64,000 nt of DNA from a virus (IMGVR_UViG_3300037067_007160:66356-130355), one strand, 5' to 3'. Shown: positions 20,572 to 30,063, counted from the first letter of the stretch. Program-made: numbers and translations. Notes: generated by a model from the sequence alone, not told the origin.

Positions 20572-20886
20572 ATGGATAAAAGAACATATAAAGATAGAAG
20601 AGAATATCTCATAAAAGCAGTAAAGAGAAGAAGACGAGAATTAAGAAAACAAGCAGTGAATTATGCTGGAGGAAAGTGCATTTTATGCAATTATAATAAA
20701 TGCTTACATGCACTAGAATTTCATCATAAAGATCCAACACAGAAAGATTTTGGAATATCAAATGGTAATTGTAATAGTTGGAATAGAATGAGGAATGAAA
20801 TTGATAAATGTATTCTAGTCTGTGCAAATTGTCATAGAGAAATACATGAGAAATTGGCGTCTACCCATCAAGGTGACGGGTCCTGA
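20572..20886 (+). CDS. HNH endonuclease; stop codon inside tRNA-Asn
   Basis: CILC..LEFHHKDP..KCILVCANCHRE. Confidence 0.85.
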   Translation: MDKRTYKDRREYLIKAVKRRRRELRKQAVNYAGGKCILCNYNKCLHALEFHHKDPTQKDFGISNGNCNSWNRMRNEIDKCILVCANCHREIHEKLASTHQGDGS

Positions 20887-20932
20887 CTGTTAATCAGGCA
20901 CAAGGGTGGTTCGATCCCACCGACGCCAGCCA
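20855..20932 (+). tRNA. tRNA-Asn(GTT)
   Basis: TGGCGTC/GACGCCA, CCTGA-CTGTTAA-TCAGG. Confidence 0.85.
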
Positions 20933-20950
20933 AATTTAGGAGATATATAT

Positions 20951-21385
20951 ATGCATCTAACATACACAAAAGCACAATTAGCATCACTTAAAGTTCAAAT
21001 GTGGGCTAATCAATTAGGATATGTCGTTTCAATACCAACTGTTGAATCTAGATATGATATTCTTGTTGATGTTGATGGAAAAATATTTCGTTGTCAAGTT
21101 AAGTATGCTGGAAGAAAGCTTACAAGTGGGGCAACAGAGTTGGATCTTCGTAAAGAGACAAGAAATAATGGGAAAAAAAGATTATATACGAAAGATGAGA
21201 TAGATGTTATTCTTGTATATGTTCCTGAAGAAGACAAGGTTCTTTGGATTGATCATTCTAAATTTCATAATAGAAAAAGTCTAACAATTAGACATATTGA
21301 GAATACAAAATGTAAACAAGATTCAATATTTGTTAACGATTATATATGGGTCCAGAGCTCGGTTGGTAGAGCAGACGCCTCTTAA
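20951..21385 (+). CDS. PD-(D/E)XK homing-type endonuclease; stop codon inside tRNA-Lys(CTT)
   Basis: VSIP..RYDILVD..RCQVKY..Y...EID motif; AGGAG RBS before ATG 20951. Confidence 0.82.
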   Translation: MHLTYTKAQLASLKVQMWANQLGYVVSIPTVESRYDILVDVDGKIFRCQVKYAGRKLTSGATELDLRKETRNNGKKRLYTKDEIDVILVYVPEEDKVLWIDHSKFHNRKSLTIRHIENTKCKQDSIFVNDYIWVQSSVGRADAS

Positions 21386-21423
21386 GCGTAAGGTCGTGGG
21401 TTCGATTCCCACTGGTCCCACCA
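21348..21423 (+). tRNA. tRNA-Lys(CTT)
   Basis: ACGC-CTCTTAA-GCGT, TTCGATT loop, ACCA. Confidence 0.88.
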
Positions 21424-21430
21424 ATTTGTT

Positions 21431-21458
21431 GTGGGTCCAACTCCCACTCGACGCACCA
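21431..21458 (+). pseudogene. Orphan tRNA 3' remnant (T-arm, acceptor strand, ACCA)
   Basis: GTGGG-TCCAACT-CCCAC-TCGACGC-ACCA with no matching 5' half. Confidence 0.7.
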
Positions 21459-21463
21459 GATTT

Positions 21464-21539
21464 GGCCTTATAGTGAAATTGAATATCACATCTCCGTCCT
21501 AAGGAGAAGTTTTCGGTTTGAGTCCGAATAAGGCCGCCA
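21464..21539 (+). tRNA. tRNA-Arg(CCT)
   Basis: TCTCC-GTCCTAA-GGAGA. Confidence 0.88.
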
Positions 21540-21554
21540 GATATAGGAGTCTTC

Positions 21555-21923
21555 ATGAACAAGATACCACTAGTCTCAGTAACCAAAGATGACTTGGAAA
21601 TACAGACGTTTAGATGTGGAGGAAAAGGTGGCCAGCATCAGAATAAGACAGAAAGTGGAGTAAGAATTATTCATCCTCCATCTGGAGTAACAGTAGAGTC
21701 AAGAGAGGAACGGTCACAGGCACAGAACAAGGCTATTGCATTTAAGAGACTTACTACTAATAAGAAGTTTCTATTATGGTTAAAGATGGAATCGGCTAGG
21801 AAGATGGGCATCCTTGAAGATATTAATAGGGCAGTTGATAGGATGATGGATCCAAAGAATATAAAGACCGAAGTTAAAGAAGATGAGAAATGGGTAGAGA
21901 AGGAATTAGCGGGTGTGGTGTAA
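21555..21923 (+). CDS. Stand-alone RF-1-domain peptidyl-tRNA hydrolase (ArfB-like ribosome rescue factor)
   Basis: FRCGGKGGQHQNKTESGVRIIHPPSG..ERSQAQNK; lacks codon-recognition domains. Confidence 0.88.
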   Translation: MNKIPLVSVTKDDLEIQTFRCGGKGGQHQNKTESGVRIIHPPSGVTVESREERSQAQNKAIAFKRLTTNKKFLLWLKMESARKMGILEDINRAVDRMMDPKNIKTEVKEDEKWVEKELAGVV

Positions 21924-27761: not shown

Positions 27762-28346
27762 GTGATAACACAACTTAATACTAAAGTTCTTGTCCTAAAC
27801 CGCTCATGGATTCCGATAGGATTTTGCGCTGTCCGCGAGGCCTTCAAGTATATTGCTGAGGATATCGCGGACATAATGGACTCTGACCTTAATACCTATG
27901 ACTACAAGACATGGTATGAGCTTGAGGTTGAAGAGGATGAGGAGTCTGTCGGCACAGTCAATAAGAGGATAAAGGTTCCTAGAATAGTAAGGCTAAAGGA
28001 CTTCAACAAAGTACCAAATACAGTTCTTCGTTTCAATAGGAAGAACCTCTATCTACGTGATAGGTATGTCTGCCAGTATTGCGCCAAGAAGTTTCCAGCT
28101 GGCACTCTTAGTATGGACCATGTCATACCTAAGTCGCGTGGCGGCCAAACTAGCTGGACAAATATTGTCACTTCTTGTATAATATGTAATACAAGAAAGG
28201 CCGATAGGACGCCAGTGGAAGCAAAGATGAAAGTAATAAAGGCACCCTACGCCCCAAGGCATCTTGATATTGATGTCCTTCATATTGAAGGTAAGAGGTA
28301 TAAGGAGTGGGAGATGTTCCTTAAGCCAAAGGAACATATATGCTGA
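27762..28346 (+). CDS. McrA-like HNH endonuclease (cellular type)
   Basis: VLVLN..RDRYVCQYC..DHVIPKSRGG.TSWTNIVTSC..CN.RK. Confidence 0.88.
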   Translation: MITQLNTKVLVLNRSWIPIGFCAVREAFKYIAEDIADIMDSDLNTYDYKTWYELEVEEDEESVGTVNKRIKVPRIVRLKDFNKVPNTVLRFNRKNLYLRDRYVCQYCAKKFPAGTLSMDHVIPKSRGGQTSWTNIVTSCIICNTRKADRTPVEAKMKVIKAPYAPRHLDIDVLHIEGKRYKEWEMFLKPKEHIC

Positions 28347-28654
28347 TACGCTACAAGGATCAGGATTCTCAAGACTGGGAGAATGTCTCAGTAAAGAATA
28401 TTCATGTCACAATAGATCTTGAGGATGTTATCTTTGGTGATATTAGGATGTCTCCTACTACTGAGCTATCCTCACTTCTTACGTCAGGGGAGAAGCTGGA
28501 CATTGAGTTCTCAAGAGCTGCAGATGATGACTTTGATGTTGTCATCTTATCAGGGATCGTTATGACTGGAGAGAGTTTTGGTTCTGGTGAAGGCTTTCAA
28601 GAACCACTAACTAGTTATCACTTCAGAGCTGATAGTCTGCAAGTTCACGATTAA
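28340..28654 (+). CDS. Hypothetical acidic protein
   Basis: 104 aa, coupled to upstream ORF. Confidence 0.55.
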   Translation: MLIRYKDQDSQDWENVSVKNIHVTIDLEDVIFGDIRMSPTTELSSLLTSGEKLDIEFSRAADDDFDVVILSGIVMTGESFGSGEGFQEPLTSYHFRADSLQVHD

Positions 28655-28658
28655 TTAT

Positions 28659-28732
28659 TGGCCTGTCGTCCAATGCTAGGACCTTCCGTTTTGAGCGGAA
28701 AGATGAAGGTTGGAGTCCTTCCAGGCTAACCA
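28659..28732 (+). tRNA. tRNA-Gln(TTG)
   Basis: TTCCG-TTTTGAG-CGGAA. Confidence 0.85.
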
Positions 28733-28733
28733 C

Positions 28734-28808
28734 GGGGATATCGGTTAATTGGTAAACCACTGGTCTCCAAAACCAGCACTCTAGGTTCGAGTCCTAGTAT
28801 CCCTGCCA
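28734..28808 (+). tRNA. tRNA-Trp(CCA)
   Basis: CTGGT-CTCCAAA-ACCAG. Confidence 0.9.
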
Positions 28809-28816
28809 AATTTAAT

Positions 28817-28892
28817 GGTAGGTGAAGGCCGATGGACGGCCGCACGGCTGTGGCCCGTGCCCTAGCCGGTTCGATTCCGGTCATCTACCCCA
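28817..28892 (+). tRNA. tRNA-His(GTG) with G-1:C73
   Basis: CACGG-CTGTGGC-CCGTG. Confidence 0.88.
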
Positions 28893-28909
28893 AACTTAGG
28901 GAGGGTGTT

Positions 28910-29716
28910 GTGAAAGAGAATTATGTTGTCATAGGTGACATCCATGGTTGCTATGACCTCCTACTTGGACTTCTGGGCCAAGTAGCCAAGAGTCCATACA
29001 AGGACTATAGGAAGGTCTTCCTTGGTGACATGGTAGATCGTGGGCCAGATAGCTTTAGGGTTGTCGCAATGGTCAAGAAGCTAATGGAGACAGAGAAGGC
29101 TATTGTCCTACTTGGAAATCATGAAGATATGATGATCAAGTATGTGGAGAATAAATGGTATAATCCACAGGACATCTGGCTCTACAATGGTGGGAAGAAG
29201 ACTATGGACTCCTATGGTAAAGGTATGAAGATGTATGGTCATGGGAAGTTCTTTGGCGCCATTGGATCTAGTGGACACTTCCAGTGGCTAAAGAAACTTC
29301 TCCCATACTATGAAACAGAGAAAGTGTGGTTTTCTCATGCTCCTATACCTGTAGAGGAATATAGGATGGATATCCATGCGAGAAAACTACATGGTGACTT
29401 TAGGAATCAGATGGATACTCTTATCTGGTCCTGGCATGGTCACTATGGAATAGAAGAAGGTGATGGATTCCTTTACGACCATAAGAAGACTGCTGTCTAT
29501 GGTCATGTTCATCGACTTCTATCTGATGGAAATCTAAAGCCAAGAATTCATGAGAATGGTATCTACATTGATACAGGTGCTGGTTGTGCTCCATATGCAC
29601 CACTAACAGCAGTGATAATTGAGGATGGAAACTATAAAGAATCCTTCCAGGAGTATCCACGAAGTAGTGGTATTGATGGAGAAATTCTCAAGACGTTGGC
29701 GCTACTTGGATCATGA
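28910..29716 (+). CDS. Calcineurin-like Ser/Thr protein phosphatase (metallophosphoesterase)
   Basis: GDIHG, GDMVDRG, GNHE, GHVH, IDTG motifs. Confidence 0.9.
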   Translation: MKENYVVIGDIHGCYDLLLGLLGQVAKSPYKDYRKVFLGDMVDRGPDSFRVVAMVKKLMETEKAIVLLGNHEDMMIKYVENKWYNPQDIWLYNGGKKTMDSYGKGMKMYGHGKFFGAIGSSGHFQWLKKLLPYYETEKVWFSHAPIPVEEYRMDIHARKLHGDFRNQMDTLIWSWHGHYGIEEGDGFLYDHKKTAVYGHVHRLLSDGNLKPRIHENGIYIDTGAGCAPYAPLTAVIIEDGNYKESFQEYPRSSGIDGEILKTLALLGS

Positions 29717-30063
29717 AAGTCATTGATAAGCCATGGGGTGAAGAAGTTTGGTTCGCTGAGACGGACAAATACGTAGGGAAGATGATCTATGTGAAAAAAG
29801 GTCATCGGCTCTCCAAACAATATCATAAGGTCAAGGATGAAACCTTACTGGCAGTTCAAGGCAAGTTTCTACTTGAATATGATGGTAAAGAACTCGTAAT
29901 GGATATTGGAAACTCTCTACGTGTTTGTCCCAATCAGATACATAGAATATCTGCACCATTTGAAGATATAGTAATAGTAGAAGTCTCTACTCCTGAAGTT
30001 GATGATGTTGTTCGGCTAGAAGATGATTATGGTCGTATGGCGAGTGGGCCGGTGCCCAGTTAG
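29713..30063 (+). CDS. Cupin (mannose-6-phosphate isomerase-like); stop codon inside tRNA(CAT)
   Basis: KPWGEE..LSKQYH..E..HRI..EVSTP..DDVVRLEDDYGR. Confidence 0.8.
   Translation: MKVIDKPWGEEVWFAETDKYVGKMIYVKKGHRLSKQYHKVKDETLLAVQGKFLLEYDGKELVMDIGNSLRVCPNQIHRISAPFEDIVIVEVSTPEVDDVVRLEDDYGRMASGPVPS

Follow-up and report, generated by a model that had tools for sequence, protein, structure and literature searches.

Free-standing nuclease genes lying in a tRNA gene cluster, on the same strand as the tRNAs, are known from phage T5 (NC_005859), in which hegC, hegD and T5.069, as annotated, extend 14, 23 and 24 nt into the tRNA gene that follows. The hegC and hegD products are HNH enzymes (F-Tfl) and T5.069 has a T5orf172 domain, nuclease families that differ from those of the phage described here. 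To our knowledge T5 encodes neither a tmRNA nor a GGQ gene, and neither is annotated in its 20-kb tRNA region. In phage T4, the homing endonuclease SegB drives the inheritance of the tRNA region, and it was proposed that maturation of tRNA-Arg cuts the segB message after its last sense codon but ahead of its stop, limiting its expression, a control mentioned also for the F-Tfl genes of T5 (PMC2330249). A link to tmRNA was not drawn in that proposal. Unlike the genes studied here, segB ends 5 nt before tRNA-Arg in RefSeq, with no overlap, and its product belongs to the GIY-YIG family, whereas ours are HNH or PD-(D/E)XK enzymes. Among bacteria, overlaps between coding sequences and t(m)RNA genes are predicted sources of non-stop mRNAs, because the stop codon is lost when the stable RNA downstream is matured (Hudson, Lau & Williams 2014, PMC4131195). 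Overlaps with an upstream coding sequence are very rare there (250 per 115,660 t(m)RNA genes), and in Carsonella smpB overlaps ssrA, so that the gene of a rescue factor would itself be subject to the pathway it serves (PMC4131195).

The DNA analysed here, a stretch of 64,000 nt that we call the window, from a virus of a groundwater metagenome, contains the same kind of layout (Table 1). The layout is not new, as it is already present in T5, and the regulatory idea was published in 2008 (PMC2330249) and 2014 (PMC4131195). Compared with the bacterial overlaps, those of this phage affect six of its 33 tRNAs and involve mostly mobile nuclease genes. A preliminary description had listed seven ORFs with the stop codon 10-38 nt inside a downstream tRNA. 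All seven stop coordinates proved correct when the ORF ends were compared with the ARAGORN tRNAs, and the six canonical tRNAs are overlapped as described, but the seventh stop falls in a cloverleaf with a CAU loop that neither ARAGORN nor Rfam calls. Five of the ORFs are indeed endonucleases by their profile matches, four to HNH families of PHROG and one to PDDEXK_5, and each of them overlaps a same-strand tRNA by 10-38 nt. It is hardly credible that the ORFs are spurious or that the tRNA boundaries were miscalled. The strong family matches of six ORFs already largely refute this, ARAGORN and Rfam agree on the 5' ends of the tRNAs, and the ORFs are conserved in the related phages L064, L065 and L066; the sole point in favour of an artefact is the non-canonical seventh element.

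Table 1. Features of the tRNA region discussed in the text (positions in the window; overlap is the length of the ORF lying inside the tRNA).
Feature	Position	Strand	Match or caller	Remarks
tmRNA gene	19426-19862	+	Rfam RF00023, 88.4 bits (cut-off 47)	
HNH ORF, 104 aa	20572-20886	+	phrog_2255 (HNH), E=1.5e-26	Overlap 32 nt; final 10 codons and TGA inside tRNA-Asn
tRNA-Asn(gtt), resident	20855-20932	+	ARAGORN	
PD-(D/E)XK ORF	20951-21385	+	Pfam PDDEXK_5, E=4.6e-18	Overlap 38 nt; final 12 codons and TAA inside tRNA-Lys(ctt), TAA in the anticodon loop
tRNA-Lys(ctt), cargo	21348-21423	+	ARAGORN	
3' remnant of resident tRNA-Lys(ctt)	21424-21463			
GGQ (RF-1 domain) ORF, 122 aa	21555-21923	+	Pfam RF-1, E=4.3e-23, 81.9 bits; best family phrog_3122 'RF-1 domain peptide chain release factor', E=1.6e-34	Overlap 15 nt; final 4 codons and TAA inside tRNA-Gly(tcc)
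tRNA-Gly(tcc)	21909-21982	+	ARAGORN; Rfam, 61 bits	
HNH ORF without overlap	22079-22483			Stops just before a tRNA
Candidate sigma-70-type promoter	24155-24183	+	TTGACA-17 nt-TATAAT, 12/12 consensus matches	Within the cassette, ahead of the HNH ORF
HNH ORF	24185/24203-24655	+	phrog_14736 (HNH), E=2e-22 (24203-24655)	Overlap 15 nt; final 4 codons and TAA inside tRNA(taa)
tRNA, UAA anticodon (taa), cargo	24641-24717	+	ARAGORN; Rfam, 62.5 bits	77 nt, short variable arm
TGATATAAT	25532-25540			Ahead of the HNH ORF 25558-25965
HNH ORF	25558-25965	+	phrog_2255 (HNH), E=7.2e-17	Overlap 10 nt; stop is TAG made by positions 8-10 of tRNA-Ile(gat)
tRNA-Ile(gat), cargo	25956-26029	+	ARAGORN; Rfam	
HNH ORF	26484-26924	+	phrog_2255 (HNH), E=1.9e-31	Overlap 22 nt; final 7 codons and TAG inside tRNA-Glu(ttc)
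tRNA-Glu(ttc), cargo	26903-26975	+	ARAGORN; Rfam	
Cupin-domain ORF, 116 aa	29713-30063	+	Pfam MannoseP_isomer/Cupin_2; phrog_7851	TAG 25 nt into the tRNA-like cloverleaf
tRNA-like cloverleaf	30039-30112	+	MFE fold, z=-3.55	CAU loop, 3' ACCA
Second non-canonical cloverleaf	30117-30196			

By its Pfam and PHROG matches the seventh ORF is a cupin and not a nuclease. The cloverleaf in which it ends was recognised as a tRNA neither by ARAGORN nor by Rfam, the latter even at E<=10. A second cloverleaf of non-canonical type was also seen (Table 1).

The physical linkage of nuclease and tRNA, which the preliminary description had suggested, is borne out by relatives that are without the HNH gene and tRNA-Glu, without the PD-(D/E)XK gene and tRNA-Lys(ctt), or without the stop-less HNH gene at tRNA-Asn. 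In metagenome variants the presence/absence joints fall at 20560/20853, 20937/21428 and 26449/27003, empty sites are found also in L064, L065 and L066, and the boundaries are precise between otherwise near-identical genomes. Before tRNA-Asn, L066 has only 7 nt following tRNA-Lys(ttt) and no HNH gene. By comparison, the HNH gene of the window is an insert of ~290 nt (RBS and ORF) that has no stop codon of its own and whose 3' limit is exactly tRNA-Asn +1. The tRNA-Asn(gtt), 100% identical in L066, is a resident gene and the source of the stop of the HNH ORF. The PD-(D/E)XK ORF and its tRNA-Lys(ctt) are missing together in L066 and in the variant X3; in the window this cargo tRNA is followed by a remnant of the resident Lys(ctt) gene, which is intact in L066 and whose 3' part aligns from 21428 on. 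The remaining three HNH ORFs also precede cargo tRNAs, and L064 has all three of the corresponding resident genes (Leu, Ile and Glu) uninterrupted, including the tRNA(taa) at the equivalent place and the tRNA-Ile(gat), where the cassette is absent. In three metagenome runs and in L065, 12 nt stand in place of the 553 nt between 26449 and 27003 that hold the HNH gene and tRNA-Glu, and in L065 the resident tRNA-Glu(ttc) is intact. The cassette at tRNA(taa) carries a promoter candidate that, from its match to the consensus, may drive the HNH ORF. With a nuclease domain, presence/absence polymorphism and an ORF 3' end abutting or overlapping a same-strand tRNA, these genes have, at the level of sequence, the features of homing endonucleases. 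In this phage, unlike T5, the empty-site alleles show several of the nucleases moving with a replacement tRNA.

At the Asn and Lys(ctt) junctions tRNA +1 is preceded by a T that opens a codon, as it would be if the terminal U left by an RNase P cut were polyadenylated to UAA, as happens in mitochondria, with no non-stop mRNA arising. The frame positions and bases of the other four junctions cannot yield UAA, however, and two out of six is the chance level for AT-rich sequence, so that completion of this kind is highly improbable.

Within the six tRNAs the stops lie at nt 8, 13, 13, 20, 30 and 36. Of 99 tRNA-by-frame combinations, 71 meet a stop before the tRNA ends; its median position is 21 nt, and nt 13 and nt 8 are the commonest sites. 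The observed positions are thus those expected from a neutral "stop trap", in which a frame without a stop would terminate there anyway. The tails of 3-12 residues encoded by the tRNAs lack conservation and are probably dispensable. They are unconstrained, in that the two GGQ orthologs do not terminate in the same frame and the tails of the PD-(D/E)XK paralogues are unrelated. In fact, a distant PD-(D/E)XK paralogue in L066 ends 39 nt within tRNA-Ser(gct), and in both paralogues the body of the protein ends at the tRNA boundary (...YI), the 12 residues that follow being dictated by tRNA-Lys in one and tRNA-Ser in the other.

We have compared the frequency of these overlaps with gene packing in the same 130-kb genome. 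Overlaps of at least 10 nt are commoner at gene-to-tRNA junctions than at gene-to-gene junctions (6/11 against 11/81, Fisher p=0.004), although the gene calls behind this comparison are crude and heuristic. Other phage tRNA arrays have the overlap at 10 of 27 junctions, which does not differ from this phage (p=0.15). Of 16 distant HNH homologues that have a same-strand tRNA immediately downstream, 12 end 10-51 nt inside it and four stop 2-10 nt before it, but near-duplicate loci (the Met-HNH-Arg(tct) group) are counted here, so that 12/16 overstates the independent events. This proportion of about three quarters, together with the enrichment, could mean selection for the overlap itself and not neutral packing. 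According to the preliminary description, the stop would be kept in the tRNA so that RNase P makes non-stop messages of most nuclease mRNAs, and tagging and destruction of their products through tmRNA would keep the toxic nucleases low. Such self-limitation is consistent with the recurrence of the overlap in the distant HNH homologues, in T5 and in the two PD-(D/E)XK paralogues, with its excess over gene-to-gene overlaps, with the tmRNA encoded by this phage and with the published suggestion that SegB and the F-Tfl enzymes are controlled in this way (PMC2330249). Nevertheless, the stop positions fit the neutral expectation, the four homologues mentioned and one HNH gene of this phage (22079-22483) terminate just ahead of the tRNA, the overlap is shared by non-nuclease genes (GGQ, cupin and an exoribonuclease in L015), and there are complete phages with the overlap but without a tmRNA of their own. 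We regard selected self-limitation as rather unlikely.

In E. coli, RNase III cuts the arfA mRNA short, leaving a non-stop message, and tmRNA tags the protein made from it. A broadly similar logic has been proposed for the GGQ gene: the factor would be made only from non-stop mRNA, tagged by tmRNA, and would accumulate only when trans-translation is saturated. Here, in contrast, the cut would be that of RNase P at the tRNA, and the protein is a GGQ domain and not ArfA. The name ArfB-like, given in the preliminary description, fails against the ArfB model NF006718, which gives 33.7 bits for a cut-off of 100, aligns residues 7-39 only and finds no match for the C-terminal tail region of ArfB. 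The GGQ regions of RF1, RF2 and PrfH all outscore it, the GGQ motif is visible, and the gene product is a stand-alone GGQ/RF-1-domain protein. Apart from the position of its stop in tRNA-Gly(tcc), feedback of the ArfA type could draw on the L064 ortholog, which likewise ends inside a Gly(UCC) cloverleaf, and on the published analogue of Carsonella smpB and ssrA (PMC4131195). However, the two orthologs differ in frame and tail, and the overlap is kept only at this orthologous locus: none of 48 GGQ homologues in viral contigs ends inside a tRNA, and 36 of them have no tRNA within 3 kb. The truncating arrangement is therefore not conserved, and in the closest relative, L066, which keeps four overlaps, the RF-1 gene is missing here. 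That the rescue factor is controlled in the manner of ArfA is, on these grounds, very unlikely.

The phage tmRNA gene is real, with an Rfam score well above the cut-off (Table 1). ARAGORN missed it on the window itself and read it in the 99.3%-identical L066, with a tag of 30 residues ending in ...EFVLA. The proposed link between the overlaps and the phage's own tmRNA or GGQ gene is not supported, since the HNH/tRNA overlap occurs also in two complete phage genomes that are devoid of RF-1 genes and in which no tmRNA scores above the cut-off, and L066 is without RF-1 here. Both genes are best read as part of a general translation-support module, with no sign of a partnership with the overlaps. 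Overall, the earlier interpretation is partly supported.

The best explanation of the region is probably that of compact mobile homing-endonuclease/tRNA cassettes in a phage tRNA array, brought about by neutral compaction. The nucleases would insert at or into tRNA genes, and short cassettes tightly linked to the travelling tRNA allele would be favoured. Free-standing HNH and PD-(D/E)XK genes adjoin the start of a tRNA gene directly, lacking both a spacer and a stop of their own, the GGQ-domain and cupin genes being two passengers of like construction, and translation runs 10-38 nt into the tRNA up to the first chance stop triplet, typically at U8-A9-G10, in the D-loop or in the anticodon loop. 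Loss of the native stop would be free of cost because the tRNA gives a stop within ~20 nt in most frames. RNase P cleaves at tRNA +1, and trans-translation acts on non-stop mRNAs. Where ORF and tRNA share one transcript, a plausible consequence of the cut at +1 is an mRNA without a stop codon, which host or phage ribosome rescue would handle, and the output of nuclease would be lower.

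Within the window, ARAGORN called 33 tRNA genes between 19870 and 28892, all on the plus strand, and Rfam identified the phage tmRNA of the preliminary description at 19426-19862 (88.4 bits). Seven ORFs of the region carry no stop codon of their own and end inside the element that follows. An ORF listing confirmed that the seven stops first noticed in the sequence are the ends of real ORFs. Six of them lie within canonical tRNA genes. The seventh lies in an element that folds as a cloverleaf (CAU loop, 3' ACCA) but matched no tRNA model in ARAGORN or Rfam, so that the placement of all stops inside tRNAs holds for six. 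Five of the ORFs are nucleases, as had been proposed.

ORFs that end inside a downstream tRNA gene or tRNA-like element of the window
ORF	Product	Element entered	Overlap (nt)
20572-20886	HNH endonuclease (PHROGs)	tRNA-Asn	32
20951-21385	PD-(D/E)XK nuclease	tRNA-Lys(ctt)	38
21555-21923	GGQ/RF-1-domain protein, 122 residues	tRNA-Gly(tcc)	15
24203-24655	HNH endonuclease (PHROGs)	UAA tRNA	15
25558-25965	HNH endonuclease (PHROGs)	tRNA-Ile(gat)	10
26484-26924	HNH endonuclease (PHROGs)	tRNA-Glu(ttc)	22
29713-30063	Cupin	Cloverleaf element 30039-30112	25

Several other features of the array deserve mention. The cloverleaf at 30039-30112 adjoins another at 30117-30196; both are non-canonical, with CAU in the loop and CCA at the 3' end, and were missed by the tRNA finders, and a metagenome variant (X3) has ~420 additional bases between them. 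On the minus strand the array has a single clear gene, an HNH-like ORF (27055-27519), antisense to which lies a weak Rfam tRNA match (27439-27515, 34.5 bits, no ARAGORN call). The UAA tRNA, annotated as tRNA-Leu(taa) (24641-24717), and the resident copy that it replaced (2455-2530 in the related array locus L064) are just 76-77 nt long, without the long variable arm expected for tRNA-Leu. A long-arm tRNA of 99 nt (22683-22781) was called Leu(taa) in the window and Ile(tat) in its counterparts in L064 and in L066, another related array.

By crude gene calling over the full 130-kb record, overlaps of at least 10 nt were found at 6 of 11 gene-to-tRNA junctions versus 11 of 81 gene-to-gene junctions (p=0.004) and therefore exceed what ordinary gene packing predicts. 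The ORF-tRNA junctions without overlap were very tight too, with gaps mostly of 4-13 nt. The individual stop positions add no information to what is expected from a stop-less frame: such frames entering the tRNAs of the window met a stop within the tRNA in 71 of 99 cases (median 21 nt), most commonly at nt 13 of the tRNA and at nt 8, where the U8-A9-G10 triplet lies, and the observed stops start at nt 8, 13, 13, 20, 30 and 36. Completion of a UAA codon by polyadenylation was possible at just two of six junctions and was dismissed as chance. Regarding the protein ends, the conserved body of the two PD-(D/E)XK proteins (window and L066) finishes at the tRNA boundary, and their 12-residue tails are unrelated, each set by its own tRNA. 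The L064 ortholog of the GGQ protein also ends inside the cloverleaf of tRNA-Gly(UCC), with a frame and tail differing from those of the window. These tails are therefore free of protein-level constraint.

A megablast search of the phage collection with the array gave no match, distant blastn only tRNA- and HNH-sized patches, and queries of IMG/VR with the phosphoesterase gene and with a 26-nt pattern from the resident tRNA-Ile yielded no close relative. Landfill metagenome contigs and three loci (L064, L065 and L066) share the array and differ in which cassettes, nuclease ORFs travelling with a cargo tRNA, they carry. In L066, which is 97-100% identical, a gap of 7 nt separates tRNA-Lys(ttt) from tRNA-Asn; compared with it, the HNH gene before tRNA-Asn in the window is a ~290-nt insert consisting of a ribosome-binding site and an ORF with no stop codon. 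This insert ends exactly at tRNA-Asn +1 and therefore takes its TGA from the resident tRNA. The 553-nt unit of HNH gene and tRNA-Glu(ttc) is absent from L065 and three metagenome runs, where the resident tRNA-Glu(ttc) is intact, and the unit of PD-(D/E)XK gene and tRNA-Lys(ctt) is absent from L066, which has an unbroken resident Lys(ctt) gene. In L064 (76-96% identical) the resident genes for Leu(taa), Ile(gat) and Glu(ttc) are uninterrupted. Two further ORFs of L066 end inside tRNAs, a distant PD-(D/E)XK paralogue at 39 nt into tRNA-Ser(gct) and an HNH ORF at 18 nt into tRNA-Arg(acg). The overlapping ORFs are mobile, either together with a tRNA or directly onto one, and these empty-site alleles lend good support to the suggested physical link between nuclease and tRNA.

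The layout recurs widely. In the RefSeq annotation of T5, hegD ends 23 nt inside tRNA-Gln, hegC 14 nt inside tRNA-Ser and T5.069, a T5orf172-domain protein, 24 nt inside tRNA-Asn. Across unrelated IMG/VR tRNA arrays, T5 and T4, 10 of 27 ORF-to-tRNA junctions overlap, a proportion not significantly different from that of the window (p=0.15). Alignment of the four HNH proteins retrieved 80 homologous loci (33-60% identity), about half of them among tRNA genes; in 20 a same-strand tRNA overlaps the ORF or begins at most ~10 nt past its end. Sixteen of these 20 were checked by ORF listing (the omitted L076, L078, L096 and L097 resemble near-duplicates of L074): 12 end 10-51 nt inside a tRNA (Trp, Lys, Arg, Pro, Gly or Leu) and four stop 2-10 nt short of one. 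Together with the other arrays, this indicates that overlap is a recurring family habit of the nucleases. As single queries, the HNH protein of the Ile cassette found three weak loci and that of the Glu cassette none. A small element common in unrelated viral contigs (L074, L076, L078, L096, L097, L107 and L122) combines an HNH gene with a tRNA-Arg(tct) downstream of it and, in most copies, a tRNA-Met upstream; the stop of the gene is a TAG at tRNA positions 8-10 in all three copies checked (L074, L107 and L122).

No terminator-like site was found between an overlapping ORF and its tRNA at any of these junctions. A promoter scan gave 29 hits versus 26.7 in shuffled sequence, and general enrichment was discarded; only two signals stand out, a perfect consensus TTGACA-17-TATAAT at 24155-24183 in one cassette and the extended -10 motif TGATATAAT, with seven copies, all on the plus strand, where ~2 were expected (25532-25540, 26469-26477, 19201-19209 and four more). 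Two of the copies lie within nuclease cassettes shortly upstream of HNH ORFs, and three overlapping ORFs are preceded by one or the other signal. By established biology, ORF and tRNA would share one transcript, and with no terminator between them RNase P cleavage at tRNA +1 would remove the stop and pass the message to ribosome rescue. A putative non-stop mRNA is a plausible consequence of the overlaps. The layout could have been kept in order to lower nuclease levels, which we regard as rather unlikely; it may simply be tolerated, given the unconstrained tails and the efficiency of tRNAs as stop traps. We favour compaction and linkage as the probable reason for the layout, with damping of the nuclease a likely side effect.

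The tmRNA and the GGQ gene had been seen as partners of these messages. The name ArfB-like fits the GGQ protein loosely, as a release-factor domain without codon-reading domains, but the ArfB equivalog model gave 33.7 bits (cut-off 100) over residues 7-39 only. Among 48 viral homologues of this gene, not one terminates inside a tRNA, and 36 lack any tRNA within 3 kb; in this the gene differs from the HNH nucleases, and ArfA-like control of it is unsupported. In five phage records with an HNH/tRNA overlap, RF-1-domain genes are absent throughout and only two records have a tmRNA above cut-off; the two 100%-complete records among the five have neither. L066 keeps four overlaps and lacks the GGQ gene at the equivalent place. 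Nothing in this survey or in L066 ties tmRNA or GGQ gene specifically to the overlaps, and it seems very improbable that the two are dedicated to cassette-derived stop-less messages, whether by tagging and silencing nucleases or by releasing truncated products, with the GGQ gene as an ArfA-like sensor. At one array position the modules alternate: the window (21555-21982) and L064 have the GGQ gene with tRNA-Gly(tcc). In L066 (13690-14082) the place is taken by a tRNA-Gly(tcc) that differs from theirs, and after it comes an EncFtn-like ORF of 98 aa, the stop of which shares 2 nt with tRNA-Cys. The tmRNA, called by ARAGORN in L066 (10618-11053) and missed in the 99.3%-identical window copy, is read by that program as encoding an unusually long tag of 30 residues, GKVKEESSLLSQAMAIIDAAFERAPEFVLA, with resume codon GGC; the usual resume codon is GCN.

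Brok-Volchanskaya et al. (2008) proposed that tRNA-Arg maturation cuts the segB transcript between last codon and stop, restraining expression, and the same restraint is said there to have been proposed for the T5 F-Tfl genes (PMC2330249). A survey by Hudson, Lau and Williams (2014) dealt with CDS/t(m)RNA overlaps that act as sources of non-stop mRNA, and it described Carsonella smpB, overlapping ssrA, as a feedback arrangement (PMC4131195). The theta-ribozyme paper (PMC10879173) does not mention ORF/tRNA overlaps. The overlaps are real, and the window brings no new principle: the layout is present in the annotation of T5, and the mechanism goes back to proposals of 2008 and 2014. The window does provide clean material to test an old proposal, with several cassettes that are independent of one another, relatives that show exact empty sites and a stop-less HNH insert ending precisely at tRNA +1. 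If tRNA maturation does limit the synthesis of homing endonucleases, this would be a simple and general restraint on toxic nucleases by phages or selfish elements, and phage tRNA arrays would be a natural and abundant source of non-stop mRNA.
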